In this document: piece after piece, positions 29,885-32,823 of the stretch
Layout of the letters: every line of letters begins with the position of its first letter
Position numbering within the stretch: the stretch's first letter is position 1
Source of the DNA: Candidatus Babeliales bacterium
Lineage (GTDB): Bacteria; Babelota; Babeliae; Babelales; CAIQNR01
Reading direction: 5' to 3'
Length of the DNA: 64,000 nt
Assembly (NCBI GenBank): GCA_031972475.1
Contig: DALYEP010000001.1
Span: 325,147 to 389,146 of the forward strand
The notes under the pieces: model-generated
What the model was told of the DNA's origin: nothing
Databases searched by the model: none
The model's input: the letters and a program-made list of their open reading frames with translations, nothing else
Position numbers and translations under genes: made by a program

Positions 29885-29968
29885 TCAAAAAGGGGGTGTT
29901 GGAGGAGTAAGTGAATAAATTACTGTAATAATCAGAAAGAAAAAAAATATTGAAACACTCTTTTTCAT
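29885..29968 (-). CDS. putative secreted peptide precursor MKKSVSIFFFFLIITVIYS-LTPPTPPF (27 aa)
   Basis: Not in ORF track; AAGAGGG RBS; n/h/c-region signal peptide then 8-aa Pro-rich tail; the GC-rich Pro codons stand out in AT-rich intergenic DNA. Confidence 0.7.
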   Translation of the reverse strand: MKKSVSIFFFFLIITVIYSLTPPTPPF

Positions 29969-30003
29969 AAACCCTCTTAACTTTGCTGTTTTTGAAAATA
30001 TTA

Positions 30004-30038
30004 TTACAATAATGTAAGTATATTCGTATAAAAGTCAA
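30004..30038. promoter_or_regulatory. minus-strand promoter overlapped by TTACA-N4-TGTAA palindrome
   Basis: TTGACT (30033-38)-16 nt-TACATT (30011-16); palindrome 30004-30017. Confidence 0.45.
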
Positions 30039-30072
30039 TCAGATAGAACATTTAAAACTAATAAAAAATTTC

Positions 30073-32823
30073 ATGATATATAATTTTTTAACAATATTAA
30101 CAACTTTTTTACATAATCATTATGTAATGCTATCAATTGAGGCATCCTTAATTATATTTAAAATAGGATTATTTTTTTTATTCATAAAAAAAATCTCTCA
30201 ACTCTCTAAAAATAAAATTCCTGCTATAACTTTGCTCATTATTATTATTACTTCTCTAATAGAAAATTTTAGTTGGTTTTCATTCATATGTTATAAAATT
30301 TTCAAGATACCAAGTCAAAATATTACGATGGGTATTATTTGTACTAGCTATGTAACTTATCTGATTATGTATTATAGCTTAATACTTTTTATACAATCTT
30401 TTAGAATAAGCAAAAAAACAAATCTGAAAAAGAATCTCAATATATTATTATTAATAATAAGCACTTTTTTTCTAATACCATTATTGATTTCTATTATATA
30501 TTTCTTTTTTCAAGAAAATGGATTTATTCAACTAGCAGATTATCTTATAAAATATAATATTTTTATACTTATTGTACGTTATAACATTTTAATATTAACA
30601 CCATACGCTATAATTGAAGGTATAACGATTATACACTCAGAACCTTTACCAAAAATATTATCTGAACAAGTAAAAACATGCATTGTTTATTTTTTGATTC
30701 CATTATTTATTGCAAATGTATGGCAAGTTTTTCCTTTTATAAACACATCTTCATTTCATACAGAAGGATTAATTTTTTCAGAAATATTTTTGCTTCTTGC
30801 TCTTTTTTATTTTGTTAAAACAATTATTGGACTTAGATTTTTAAATTTACACAGTCATGTGTATGAAACAAAAGGATTTAATTTTCTTTATGATTTTAAA
30901 ATAGTTTTAGAAGAACTTGGCCAAATAACAAATATTACAGAAATAAAAATTCTTTCTCAGCAATTCTTTAATAAAGCTTTTAATATTGATCCACAAAAAA
31001 TAAATTTAAAAATAATAACTAATAATCATTTAATGGATAAAGACTATTTCTCTAAACAACACAATCTATTACAAACAACTATTGAAAATTTTATAACTCA
31101 AGAAAATTTTGAAAAATTAACAAATCAATCAAATGCAACAGAAAGCCTCATTCAAATACTTATTTATGATGAAATTGCATACACTCATTTTCATGAACCA
31201 AGTAATTTCACAGAGCGTTTATTAACATTTTTAAATGATATTAATGCTGATGTATTTTTGCCAATGTACGATCAAGATAAAATTATTGGTTATATTATTA
31301 TCAATAAAAATTCTGGTCGTAAAAAATTTTACACAAATATTGAACGCGATGAAATGATAATTTTTACAACTTATGCAGCTAAAATTGTAAACTTACTACA
31401 AAATAGAAATTTAAATGAGCTCCTTAAAGAACGAAAAGAAATAACAGAAGAACTTTATACAAAACACCAAGAAATATCTCGATACAAAGAAAGCCTTCAA
31501 TCTTTTATAAAAATTAACAAAGGAAATTCTATCGGAATTATTCTTTATAAAAACAAAATATTTTCATTTGCCAATGAAGACGCAAATAAAATATTAGGAA
31601 TTAATCCAAACAAGGAAAAAGGCGATCCAACAACAAAATCACTGCTTCAAATGGCTGATAAAATAGAAAAATATAAAGCCCCTCAATTACAATTCGGGAA
31701 AAATATTTATAATAAAAGATTTGTAATATCTGGAATTCCTCATCCAGAAAATTCAAGTGTTATATTTACTGTATACTATCCAGAACTTTCTGACATTATA
31801 GAGGAACTTATAGATCATGTTAAAAATCCTAGCAACTGGGACTATTTATTATACCTAGAAACAACAGAATCAGGTAAACTTATCAATAATTTAATTCCTG
31901 GTAATGGAGAAGTTTTACTTAACTTTAAAATAGAACTTCTTAAAGTAGCGCTTACAAAAAAAGCACTACTTCTTAATATCCCTGAAAACGATATTATATC
32001 TATGGTTGAGCTTATTCATCATATTTCACTTAAAGAAAATTTACATGTTCTCAATTTACAAGCACCAGTTACATCACAAGAAATAGGAATTTCCTTATTT
32101 GGAATAAATCAACTTTTTGCAATAAGTTCTTTAAAAGATTCTTTTAAGGAACCTCTTCTTGAAAAGTTAAATAAAAAAGGAACTCTTTTCATAAAAAACA
32201 TTCATTTTTTAGATTTGGAATCTCAAAACAATCTTGCAACATTTATACGTTATGGATTTTATACTATTCTTAAAACCGAGCGTAAAATGTTTAGTGAAGT
32301 AAGAATTATATGCTCTACAAATCAAAACTTAGAGCATCTTACAAAAGAAGGACTCTTTTCTGAAATCTTATTAAAAGAGTTAAGAAATACATCACTAACT
32401 CTTCCAACTTTATTAACATTACCTGTTAATGAAATTAATACACTTATAGAAAACTTCACAGAACAATCACTTAATACAGAAAATCCAACTAATAAATTAC
32501 TAACACTTTCAGAAAAAGATCGTGAAACTTTAATTGCACAGCGCCCTGCAAGTTTATACGACATAAAAGAAAGTATTAAAAATTTGTTACTTGCAAAATC
32601 AAAAAAAATGGATGTTTACGAAGAAACAACTTTTGATGCAGCATATAACATTTCTGATCCTAAACTTGCAGAGGCTGCACGACTAGGAAAACACGCATTA
32701 AAAGATCCAATGATTATGGCGATGCTGTGGAATAAATTTAAAAATCAAAATAAAATCGCTCTCTTTCTTGGAGTTAATAGGTCTTCTATTCATAGAAGAT
32801 GTAAAGACTATGGAATTTTATAA
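30073..32823 (+). CDS. membrane-anchored one-component regulator: about 7 TM + GAF + coiled coil + PAS-like + degenerate sigma54-activator AAA+ + Fis-type HTH
   Basis: 7 hydrophobic segments in first about 260 aa; VFLPMYDQDKIIGYIII GAF end; GTLFIKNI, VRIICSTNQNL; NQNKIALFLGVNRSSIHRRCKDYGI HTH. Confidence 0.82.
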   Translation: MIYNFLTILTTFLHNHYVMLSIEASLIIFKIGLFFLFIKKISQLSKNKIPAITLLIIIITSLIENFSWFSFICYKIFKIPSQNITMGIICTSYVTYLIMYYSLILFIQSFRISKKTNLKKNLNILLLIISTFFLIPLLISIIYFFFQENGFIQLADYLIKYNIFILIVRYNILILTPYAIIEGITIIHSEPLPKILSEQVKTCIVYFLIPLFIANVWQVFPFINTSSFHTEGLIFSEIFLLLALFYFVKTIIGLRFLNLHSHVYETKGFNFLYDFKIVLEELGQITNITEIKILSQQFFNKAFNIDPQKINLKIITNNHLMDKDYFSKQHNLLQTTIENFITQENFEKLTNQSNATESLIQILIYDEIAYTHFHEPSNFTERLLTFLNDINADVFLPMYDQDKIIGYIIINKNSGRKKFYTNIERDEMIIFTTYAAKIVNLLQNRNLNELLKERKEITEELYTKHQEISRYKESLQSFIKINKGNSIGIILYKNKIFSFANEDANKILGINPNKEKGDPTTKSLLQMADKIEKYKAPQLQFGKNIYNKRFVISGIPHPENSSVIFTVYYPELSDIIEELIDHVKNPSNWDYLLYLETTESGKLINNLIPGNGEVLLNFKIELLKVALTKKALLLNIPENDIISMVELIHHISLKENLHVLNLQAPVTSQEIGISLFGINQLFAISSLKDSFKEPLLEKLNKKGTLFIKNIHFLDLESQNNLATFIRYGFYTILKTERKMFSEVRIICSTNQNLEHLTKEGLFSEILLKELRNTSLTLPTLLTLPVNEINTLIENFTEQSLNTENPTNKLLTLSEKDRETLIAQRPASLYDIKESIKNLLLAKSKKMDVYEETTFDAAYNISDPKLAEAARLGKHALKDPMIMAMLWNKFKNQNKIALFLGVNRSSIHRRCKDYGIL

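Follow-up and report, generated by a model that had tools for sequence, protein, structure and literature searches.

To our knowledge, peptide signalling has so far been essentially a Gram-positive phenomenon, and the described systems that come closest to the locus reported here are the SHP/Rgg, AgrD/AgrC and ComC/ComD pairs. We analysed a 64-kb stretch of a Candidatus Babeliales genome (64,000 nucleotides of contig DALYEP010000001.1; hereafter the window, in whose numbering positions are given unless another locus is named). In it a 27-codon micropeptide gene is divergent from reg, a gene whose 916-residue product joins a seven-transmembrane (7TM) domain to a predicted DNA-binding helix-turn-helix (HTH) in one polypeptide, and this pairing recurs in related genomes. 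The explanation that we favour, and to which we give about an even chance, is that the peptide is exported and that the adjacent one-component regulator senses its C-terminal Pro-Pro (PP) end with the 7TM domain and would control sigma-70 promoters.

The genes shp and rgg are divergent, and mature SHPs are fragments from the C-terminus whose first residue is a conserved Asp or Glu (PMC3679016). The precursor of the streptococcal SHP1299 ends in ...VVIDIIIFPPFG (FPPFG), with a hydrophobic run, an Asp and a Pro-Pro two residues from the C-terminus (PMC3679016), a likeness to the Dependentiae tails described below that is probably convergence, given the phylogenetic distance. As in SHP/Rgg, a tiny and usually unannotated gene for a short hydrophobic peptide is divergent from a regulator gene (in the related loci 65 of 76 first-copy regulators have one, as do 15 of 29 tandem paralogs), several paralogous pairs can be found per genome, and the active part of the SHP is C-terminal. 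The acidic residue near the C-terminus of SHPs may have a partial counterpart here: the second position before PP is Asp or Glu in 33 of 85 peptides, Arg in 12, and Gln or Thr in the clade of the window. Rgg is a soluble cytoplasmic receptor of the TPR type whose peptide is matured by Eep, exported by PptAB and re-imported by Opp/Ami, whereas reg encodes a 7TM membrane protein with an output derived from bacterial enhancer-binding proteins (bEBPs), and no TPR or Rgg family was detected in the 916-aa protein. The locus also differs from SHP/Rgg in having no sequence homology to it, in belonging to a diderm, obligately intracellular phylum, and in having Pro-Pro as its invariant element.

The AgrD/AgrC and ComC/ComD systems resemble the locus in combining a small peptide, whose export is here predicted, with a polytopic sensor of six to seven helices that has little extracellular mass, and in the diversification of peptide and sensor domain together into specificity groups. 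Their sensors are histidine kinases that act with a response regulator and are encoded in one operon with dedicated genes for processing or export (AgrB, ComAB), whereas here sensor and HTH form one polypeptide; in the 916-aa protein neither HisKA nor HATPase_c was detected, and the neighbours of the locus are nth, xerC and PBP2. SHP/Rgg is the closest analogy in logic and the polytopic domain of AgrC/ComD the closest for the receptor, and neither is homologous.

A micropeptide gene head to head with a membrane-integrated regulator

The first-pass annotation of the window had proposed a 27-codon gene lying head to head with the gene of a 916-aa protein, 104 nt apart. Both open reading frames (ORFs) were found again, with 104 nt between the micropeptide ATG and the reg ATG, and a Shine-Dalgarno (SD) site was added:

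29885..29968, minus strand: micropeptide gene, 27 aa, coordinates including the stop codon (ORF list)
29972-29978, minus strand: Shine-Dalgarno site AAGAGGG, 3 nt before the micropeptide ATG
30073..32823, plus strand: reg, 916-aa membrane-integrated one-component regulator (ORF list, Pfam, AlphaFold2 (AF2), homologs)

The micropeptide ORF (29885..29968, minus strand) translates to MKKSVSIFFFFLIITVIYSLTPPTPPF, which consists of an MKK n-region, a hydrophobic run of 17-18 residues and the tail LTPPTPPF with its two TPP modules. The combination of a hydrophobic run with a C-terminal PP is found in 2 of the 984 small ORFs in the 64-kb window, the second match being an antisense ORF that lacks an SD site. 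When the gene is compared with its counterpart in locus L001, whose regulator is 88% identical, there are 8 synonymous and 7 non-synonymous differences (pS 0.43, pN 0.12), and the micropeptide gene is under purifying selection. An overlapping 53-aa ORF with a TTG start (29877-30038) was rejected; it has neither an SD site nor the features of the family.

The gene has largely escaped annotation. Gene callers left the ORF uncalled in three independent contigs, and no NCBIfam family matches the micropeptide. Of ten peptide sequences looked up among 15 billion collected proteins, only the three variants of 35, 62 and 64 aa were present, the last of them labelled 'hypothetical protein', and the seven others, of 26-41 aa, were absent.

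The micropeptide accompanies the regulator in Dependentiae genomes

A genome scan retrieved 79 related loci (L numbers), with regulators from 88% down to 38% identical to the window protein. The full-length relatives of reg all come from metagenome-assembled genomes (MAGs) of Dependentiae/Babeliales (TM6). The gene order nth(-), reg(+), in some cases a second reg(+), xerC(+) and PBP2(+) is kept in most of the 79 loci, nth being syntenic in 62, and in the window its members are:

29153..29827, minus strand: nth (endonuclease III), the downstream same-strand neighbour of the micropeptide gene
32895-33818, plus strand: xerC-like recombinase gene, 3' of reg and co-oriented with it
33818-35611, plus strand: PBP2/mrdA, 3' of the xerC-like gene and co-oriented with it

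The first-pass annotation had also expected orthologs and paralogs of reg to have a peptide gene of their own, and a divergent signal-like ORF with a short tail is indeed found beside most of them. By a strict pattern, such an ORF lies on the minus strand upstream of 65 of 76 first-copy regulators and of 15 of 29 tandem paralogs (second or third copies). The same pattern on the plus strand, taken as a control, occurs in 2 of 76 first-copy gaps and 0 of 29 tandem-copy gaps, and the background elsewhere in the loci is 30 matches in 746 kb, or 0.0185 per 460 bp counting both strands. Several of the misses are near-variants (WPTGC, YPGGS, TPGGR) or belong to regulators interrupted in assembly, and others are ORFs too short for the pattern (the upstream copies in L049 and L068, and L077). 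The distance between the start codons of peptide and regulator has a median of 85 nt (interquartile range 79-100), and an SD-like motif precedes 84 of 87 family small ORFs, with GGAGT-type k-mers enriched. Because of the SD site, the conserved sigma-70 promoter described below, a pN lower than pS and recurrence above background, we regard the micropeptide gene as real, translated and conserved.

About 25 of the 79 loci carry two or three tandem regulator paralogs, with three copies in L068, and the window genome has a single peptide-regulator pair. The small ORF is kept, divergent from the regulator, in loci without an adjacent nth (L004, L010, L032, L047, L058, L060, L063, L066 and L070). It is also found between tandem regulators, with the 3' end of the preceding regulator downstream of it, in L049, L068, L045 and L077, and the second copies in L008, L015, L023 and others have the same placement. 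Since the ORF persists without nth and is present between tandem regulators, the micropeptide is linked to the regulator and not to nth. The pairing extends to the level of paralogs, with duplication of the pair as such, and overall the pair is found in 77 of the 79 loci.

This linkage bears on the possibility that the micropeptide is a cis-acting leader, at whose Pro-Pro codons the ribosome would stall (EF-P-dependent or RAPP-like, as in SecM, MifM and ApdA) to control nth. The gene downstream on the same strand is nth in 62 of 79 loci, and PPG, PPN and R-x-PP resemble what we take to be stalling motifs. SecM, MifM and ApdA, however, lie upstream of and co-directional with the Sec/YidC-pathway gene that they regulate, whereas the micropeptide gene is followed by nth, by another gene or by a convergent regulator; it persists both where nth is missing and where the next gene is convergent, and nth has a promoter-like TAGCATAAT box of its own in about 12 of 84 loci. 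Arrest of the SecM type needs a long nascent chain, and here the median length is 32 aa, the minimum 21, and PP stands 1-3 residues from the end. The ribosome exit tunnel holds about 30-40 residues, so that a chain of 21-35 aa would still be inside it at the PP codons and its hydrophobic segment could not serve as a force sensor. A conserved n-region, a hydrophobic run and a fixed tail of 1-3 residues would moreover be superfluous for stalling. We consider arrest at this gene extremely improbable, and its narrower form, a leader peptide dedicated to nth, is excluded by the ORFs without an adjacent nth, by the copies between regulators and by the short length.

Among the two-regulator loci, tandem copies occupy about positions 4000-9700 of each locus in L008, L015, L023, L026, L028, L030, L031, L040, L044, L046, L052, L054, L067 and L078. 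About half of the extra regulator copies have their own divergent peptide gene, in a gap of 200-350 nt. The N-terminal region of the regulator is interrupted in L027 (3033-4715), L072 (3977-4727) and L048 (3236-3998); in L027 nth is split as well, and the peptide frame lacks its PP end. As the neighbouring nth of L027 is broken too, we suspect that these breaks are assembly or sequencing indels rather than gene decay, and they were set aside as evidence for co-degeneration.

Only the Pro-Pro end is common to the peptides

Tail and length statistics were taken from 85 distinct peptide sequences, and charge and cleavage statistics from 88 peptides. The shared plan begins with a basic N-terminus and a hydrophobic run of about 15 residues; next come one residue that is charged or polar and one that is aromatic or small, followed by Pro-Pro, one to three further residues and the stop codon. 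The peptides are 32 aa long in the median (range 21-64). Counting back from PP, positions -16 to -4 are hydrophobic, position -2 is Asp in 18 peptides, Glu in 15 and Arg in 12, and position -1 is Phe in 16, Trp in 10, Gln in 8, Gly in 8 and Tyr in 7. PP is followed by two residues in 52 peptides, by one in 13 and by three in 13, which places 78 of 85 within the range of 1-3. Of 88 peptides, 76 have an N-terminal net charge of at least +1, and the median length of the uncharged run, 15 residues, is that of a signal peptide.

The octapeptide LTPPTPPF, put forward initially as the mature signal, is not conserved as a unit: in relatives with regulators 70%, 56% and 51% identical to that of the window the peptides end in AVCPPWPW, AFYPPNK and SFQPPVG, and across the peptide ends only PP and the 1-3 C-terminal residues are conserved. 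Release by signal peptidase had been proposed along with it. Under a lenient -3/-1 rule a cut between core and PP is permitted in 76 of 88 peptides, including that of the window (between VIYS and L); none but the long variants has a clear site, and in 12 of the 88 no site is permissible.

The long variants are the most informative members about which part of the peptide matters. L071 (...STVIA followed by QKAIKHDTTKKGMLAPPPG) and L079 (...DVQA followed by NAKAKKDVHGAPHGLPPY) each have a signal peptide with a clear -3/-1 site, between VIA and Q and between VQA and N respectively, and then a hydrophilic mature part. L050, L069, L039 and the second copy of L067 resemble them in having a likely cleavage site followed by a hydrophilic linker, and the PP end is the sole part that variants of this type have in common. 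In some precursors the PP module is repeated: there are three DDFPPMG modules in L050 (3466-3654), three VPPxP modules in L069 (3456-3650), two (W/F)PPIL modules in L067 (3655-3768) and two TPPQ modules in L006 (3707-3847). The long and repeat-module variants share the PP end only, and the comparison suggests that this C-terminal module is the part that functions, outside the cytoplasm, and that the hydrophobic segment serves for export or anchoring. Repeats of a PP module after a cleavable signal peptide resemble multi-copy peptide precursors. Two tandem peptide genes each are found in L029 (1836-2093), L002 and L047 (3682-3854).

Tails such as DDFPPMG (three copies), APPGW, WPPGW and VPPPP also resemble what we take to be eukaryotic proline motifs, so the peptide might instead be aimed at the host, as a mimic of the proline-rich ligands of EVH1, WW, GYF, SH3 or profilin inside the protist. 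Dependentiae are intracellular parasites that secrete effectors (PMC6561590), which is compatible with such a role. Mimicry would have to work with tails of only 4-8 residues that vary greatly around PP, and it would not explain why the peptide is strictly paired, and duplicated together, with a membrane receptor of the bacterium; nor is a secretion-system signal evident. We judge it very unlikely. A hydrophobic peptide of the type I toxin kind was rejected, as it would account neither for the invariant PP-xx end nor for the pairing with each regulator paralog nor for the variants in which the hydrophobic part is only a signal peptide.

Architecture of the 916-residue regulator

The whole protein was modelled with AF2 from 41 homologs (pLDDT 82), and residues 1-262 were modelled separately (pLDDT 86.6, pTM 0.83). 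The parts of the predicted protein are:

30073..30858, plus strand: sensor domain, residues 1-262, an N-terminal helix and seven TM helices (AF2)
residues 2-14: N-terminal helix, outward-facing (AF2)
residues 16-41, 49-77, 82-108, 117-145, 163-189, 194-219 and 230-253: TM helices (AF2)
30883..31404, plus strand: alpha/beta domain 1, residues 271-444, possibly GAF-like, unconfirmed (AF2)
31411..31812, plus strand: coiled-coil helix 447-481 and PAS-like five-stranded alpha/beta domain 487-580 (AF2)
31828..32472, plus strand: degenerate bEBP-type AAA+ domain, residues 586-800 (partial Pfam match, Foldseek, NtrC1 alignment)
32659..32808, plus strand: probable Fis-type HTH, residues 863-912 (AF2 helices; family consensus ...FLGVNRSSVNRRCK)

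The layout 7TM-GAF-PAS-AAA-HTH had been read from the translation of the window, and the 7TM domain, the AAA+ fold and a helical C-terminus that would be the HTH are present in the model; the GAF and PAS labels are without sequence support. Across the 103 members of the family, loops 1, 3 and 5 and the segment after TM7 hold 1.8-2.8 Lys or Arg residues per loop, and the N-terminus and loops 2 and 6 about 0.5. By the positive-inside rule this bias fixes the predicted topology of the 7TM domain as N-out/C-in, with small outward loops.

The AAA+ domain is recognised by PF00158 (Sigma54_activat) at 36.2 bits against a cut-off of 20.2, over residues 694-774 and only profile positions 87-166 of 168. 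In Foldseek comparisons its closest structures are NtrX (top), PspF, DmpR and NtrC1, with E values of 1e-9 to 1e-7 for NtrX, PspF and NtrC1. Its catalytic motifs have gone. Walker A is unrecognisable, the family consensus at that place being KKAxLLxxPEEDLxPTVELLHH, and phmmer alignments to NtrC1 start past the P-loop. For Walker B, GTLFLDEIGEL of NtrC1 aligns with GTLFIKNIHFL, where IKN is the family consensus, and GAFTGA of NtrC1 aligns with LFAISS, where the family consensus is GINPLFG. Since Walker A, Walker B and GAFTGA are lost throughout the family, the domain is predicted to be a catalytically dead pseudo-ATPase unable to act on sigma-54. The C-terminal HTH region is the most conserved part of the regulator; its best match is HTH_8 (PF02954), which is sub-threshold (E 0.013, 15.6 bits against a 22-bit cut-off), and NCBIfam alignments to NtrX, TyrR and DhaR run to the C-terminal HTH ends of those proteins.

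TyrR and NtrX likewise have an AAA+ domain of the sigma-54-activator family without GAFTGA, placed between PAS-like domains and a Fis-type HTH, both of which are putative here; they are soluble and keep their nucleotide-binding motifs, whereas here Walker A and B are lost and a 7TM domain is fused to the N-terminus. With ToxR and CadC the protein shares the plan of a single DNA-binding polypeptide that spans the inner membrane and uses no phosphorelay. ToxR and CadC, though, have one TM helix, an N-terminal winged helix and a periplasmic sensor, whereas this protein has seven helices, its domains in reverse order and a probable HTH of the bEBP type.

Neither the 7TM nor the middle domains have a Pfam match at E values up to 10 (eight N-terminal domains were searched for 7TM) or a sequence match in the PDB, and the 7TM domain has none in NCBIfam; the 7TMR-DISM and 5TMR-LYT-type Pfam profiles in particular leave it unmatched at E up to 10. 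A 7TM profile found 389 proteins among 1.84 billion representative proteins, and the best 150 of these are all proteins of about 900 aa or fragments. Against the PDB, Foldseek returned for the 7TM domain only weak generic matches to eukaryotic GPCRs and rhodopsins (best E 5e-3). A polypeptide running from a 7TM sensor to an HTH had been called non-canonical in the first-pass annotation, and we agree: the 7TM domain matches no Pfam or NCBIfam family and is confined to this architecture among its matches, and the one-polypeptide regulator is, as judged by these searches, an undescribed family. On the same grounds neither the micropeptide nor the 7TM domain appears to match any described family, and in the full-text literature on Dependentiae we found no description of this regulator or peptide.

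The shared promoter region

The spacer between the two genes in the window contains:

30011..30038, minus strand: predicted sigma-70 promoter of the micropeptide gene, -35 TTGACT at 30033-30038, 16-nt spacer, -10 TACATT at 30011-30016
30000-30013, no strand: palindrome ATTATT-AC-AATAAT, overlapping the predicted -10 and the peptide transcription start

Promoter-like matches in the window spacer are not above expectation (5 observed, 3.6 in shuffled sequence). In the family the conserved peptide promoter has a -35 of TTGnnn and, in 60 of 85 loci, a 17-nt spacer; its -10 reads TATACT in 36 loci and TATAAT in 14, and the leader measures about 42 nt. On the plus strand the peptide -35 reads GATCAATA or GCAATA. 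The regulator ATG is 5-8 nt from it in many loci, most often 6-7, with the distance widely spread, and the regulator has no SD site. Of 84 gaps, 26 have the 8-mer AGTATAAT, where 1.4 would be expected; it includes a perfect plus-strand TATAAT that overlaps the -10 of the peptide, with no conserved plus-strand -35. As the -10 boxes of both strands overlap in AGTATAAT, the peptide and regulator genes may compete for RNA polymerase at one site, that is, have mutually exclusive divergent promoters.

The first-pass annotation had noted a palindrome over the peptide promoter and had proposed that the regulator controls this promoter (autoinduction). The palindrome exists and overlaps the predicted -10, but about 0.6 such palindromes are expected by chance, as estimated from the base composition of the AT-rich spacer, and it is shared with L001 only; as an operator it was rejected. 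Operators were also sought by information content anchored on the -10 and by k-mer enrichment, with the downstream flank of the peptide gene included, and only the SD site, promoter hexamers and nth-proximal motifs were returned. Autoinduction is not indicated either: the peptide promoter is near-consensus sigma-70, which argues against simple autoinduction, and no conserved operator accompanies it. If the regulator acts at the shared promoters, repression or promoter choice would be more likely than autoinduction.

Among the nth-proximal sequences, about 12 of 84 loci have the TAGCATAAT box just before the start codon of nth, amid AT-rich inverted repeats (29827-29872 in the window); it may be nth's own, possibly leaderless, promoter.

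Peptide tails track the sensor domain

On a neighbour-joining tree of 103 regulators the peptide classes follow the receptor clades. The second-paralog clade, together with the single-copy regulators of L060 and L063, has mainly R-[WYF]-PP peptides, the first-paralog clade [DE]-x-PP peptides and the clade of the window Q/T-PP peptides. In genomes with two peptide genes the tails differ in 13 of 13 cases, and in 8 of these 13 one tail is acidic or neutral and the other basic.

Tail similarity is associated with identity in the 7TM domain (standardised beta 0.24-0.27, permutation p 0.002). With a six-residue tail no other regulator domain is associated (coiled-coil/PAS p 0.23), and among pairs below 50% overall identity the rank correlation for this tail is 0.23 with 7TM as against at most 0.07 with the other domains. 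When four tail positions were analysed, the one analysis in which GC content was controlled, coiled-coil/PAS showed a marginal association with the tail (beta 0.11, p 0.034), and none was seen for the GAF-like, AAA+ and C-terminal segments. The co-variation of tail and 7TM that the first-pass annotation had proposed to look for is thus present, and by these measures the peptide-regulator pairs look cognate.

The same data qualify this result. The hydrophobic segment of the peptide also tracks the 7TM domain (beta 0.21, p 0.006), so the tail is not alone in doing so, and the co-variation may mean contact along the whole peptide or just that the 7TM domain is the fastest-evolving part of the regulator and its best clock. 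When receptors of acidic and basic peptides were compared, no clean charge-swap partner was found in the outer loops; there are weak charge trends, R122 in class A and an acidic residue 155 in class B, and no receptor co-switch within the subclade in which the peptide class changes.

The missing contact residues could mean that the peptide is an output rather than an input of the regulator: a small envelope or membrane peptide that is the main regulated product of the divergent promoter, so that adjacency reflects co-regulation. Regulators often adjoin their targets, and the two genes share a tight back-to-back promoter region (median 85 nt from start codon to start codon), as one would expect of such an arrangement. 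It does not predict, however, that duplicated regulators keep their own diverged peptides with charge classes that track the receptor clade, nor that co-variation with the six-residue tail is specific to the sensor domain rather than the DNA-binding or AAA+ parts, and a peptide promoter that is near-consensus and lacks a recognisable operator hardly suits a main target. We think this reading rather unlikely.

A proposed two-gene sensory module

In the explanation that we favour, the locus would be a two-gene sensory module made of a 21-64-aa precursor and a divergent, inner-membrane-anchored transcription factor, and the epitope would be the clade-specific residue pair, the invariant Pro-Pro and the 1-3 residues after it. 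The peptide would first be inserted or exported so that its Pro-Pro C-terminus comes to lie on the periplasmic side, where long variants would be released by signal peptidase and short ones either cut just before the conserved acidic residue or left tethered to the membrane. The PP end would then be recognised by its cognate 7TM domain, at the small periplasmic face or in the outer leaflet, and the signal would pass through the cytoplasmic domains to the HTH. The HTH in turn would control sigma-70, not sigma-54, promoters, the targets probably including the back-to-back peptide and regulator promoters as well as xerC-mrdA downstream. Within this model we infer that the peptide is exported, cleaved and bound, and likewise which way the regulation runs and which genes form the regulon. 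The initial observation itself is confirmed, and the heart of its reading, a peptide gene paired in function with a novel 7TM one-component regulator, comes out considerably stronger.

Beside the hydrophobic-segment association and the missing charge-swap partner, several further observations weigh against it. Fourteen of the 29 tandem paralogs have no peptide gene of their own. In the 79 loci no exporter or processing gene (AgrB or ComAB-type) and no protease gene lies within 4 kb. A permissible signal-peptidase site is missing from 12 of 88 peptides (among them the Q-PP peptides of L002, L003 and one of the two of L047, and several R-x-PP peptides), and the siteless Q-PP peptides of L002, L003 and L047 are near the clade of the window. 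Many R-x-PP peptides have no positive charge at the N-terminus and their sole Arg after the hydrophobic run, a layout that by the positive-inside rule would put the PP end in the cytoplasm. Finally, despite the near-invariant HTH, no conserved operator is found in the gap between peptide and regulator genes, in the first 100 nt of reg or in the gap between reg and xerC.

Part of this evidence would be explained if the peptide were an uncleaved, membrane-embedded accessory subunit, its helix docked laterally on the 7TM bundle and capped by PP, that tunes the regulator of the same cell. Such a subunit would need neither exporter, protease nor signal-peptidase site, would account for the co-variation of its hydrophobic segment with 7TM, and fits the size of most members, which are 21-40 aa long with PP 1-3 residues past the hydrophobic run. 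MgrB offers a comparison, in mode of action only, as a membrane protein of about 30-50 aa that acts on the membrane or periplasmic part of a sensor, PhoQ; MgrB is not encoded beside phoQ, is not co-duplicated with it and has no invariant C-terminal Pro-Pro. The uncharged run, with its median of 15 residues, is nevertheless of signal-peptide length and short for spanning a bilayer; in the long variants a cleavable signal peptide precedes a hydrophilic mature part of which the PP end alone is conserved; and the two or three PP modules of some precursors would be superfluous for docking a helix. An accessory subunit is therefore, in our view, unlikely, though a serious contender to an exported and sensed peptide.

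Cell envelope, division genes and wider reading

The first-pass annotation had taken the cell to be diderm, and the window is consistent with this because it contains a Tol cluster, with tolQ, tolR, a gene with a TonB_2 domain (TolA-like) and tolB (PD40 repeat) at 41120-44281 on the minus strand. In a cultured member of the phylum both inner and outer membranes have been shown (PMC6561590). A 7TM-transcription factor fusion with its micropeptide would extend peptide signalling to a diderm lineage. Dependentiae live as obligate intracellular parasites in protists and, though widespread, have hardly been studied as a phylum.

As the purpose of the system, density sensing had been suggested, possibly with control of xerC-mrdA. 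The evidence for them consists of synteny and of the 71-nt gap between reg and xerC, in which neither a terminator nor a promoter was detected. Dependentiae have very few transcription factors and a growth-then-division cycle that is unexplained (PMC6561590). The genome paper on Chromulinavorax destructans lists merR, yebC and fmdB as the only regulators, and this organism has a rudimentary division machinery, with division delayed in its replication bodies (PMC6561590). Since division is rudimentary and delayed there, the position of the module upstream of xerC and PBP2, a link by synteny only, is worth testing, and a sensory module that recurs across the related loci and stands directly upstream of these two genes would be a prime candidate for a master developmental switch.

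A bolder form of the favoured explanation, which we consider doubtful, is that Dependentiae possess a peptide system of their own for sensing other cells or confinement, in which secreted [DE/R/Q]-aromatic-Pro-Pro-xx peptides act on a GPCR-like 7TM domain through orthogonal paralogous channels and time xerC-mrdA and division. If so, the module would time when cells stop growing in the intracellular replication body and turn to chromosome resolution, wall synthesis and division. Among diderm obligate intracellular lineages it would be the first peptide sensor of quorum or confinement, and it would have a new class of receptor. The system lends itself to experiment, since the peptides are short enough to synthesise, the receptor domain is defined and orthogonal pairs occur naturally. 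It also illustrates a gap in annotation, as conserved micro-genes of this kind are recoverable from synteny.

Some minor observations concern the records and the remainder of the window, whose GC content is about 30%. Many MAG records with the reg locus (L001-L004, L009, L010, L013 and others) are titled 'uncultured Pseudomonadota bacterium', which on these Dependentiae-locus records is probably a taxonomic mislabel at source. Two neighbouring FtsH-type genes, of 532 aa and 617 aa, lie at 37460-41044 on the minus strand, and Pfam finds the FtsH extracellular (N-terminal) domain in the longer one only. A 165-aa ORF (28510-29007, minus strand), 3' of nth, has a signal-like N-terminus and no family match, and its one relative among the 79 loci is in the closest genome, L001.

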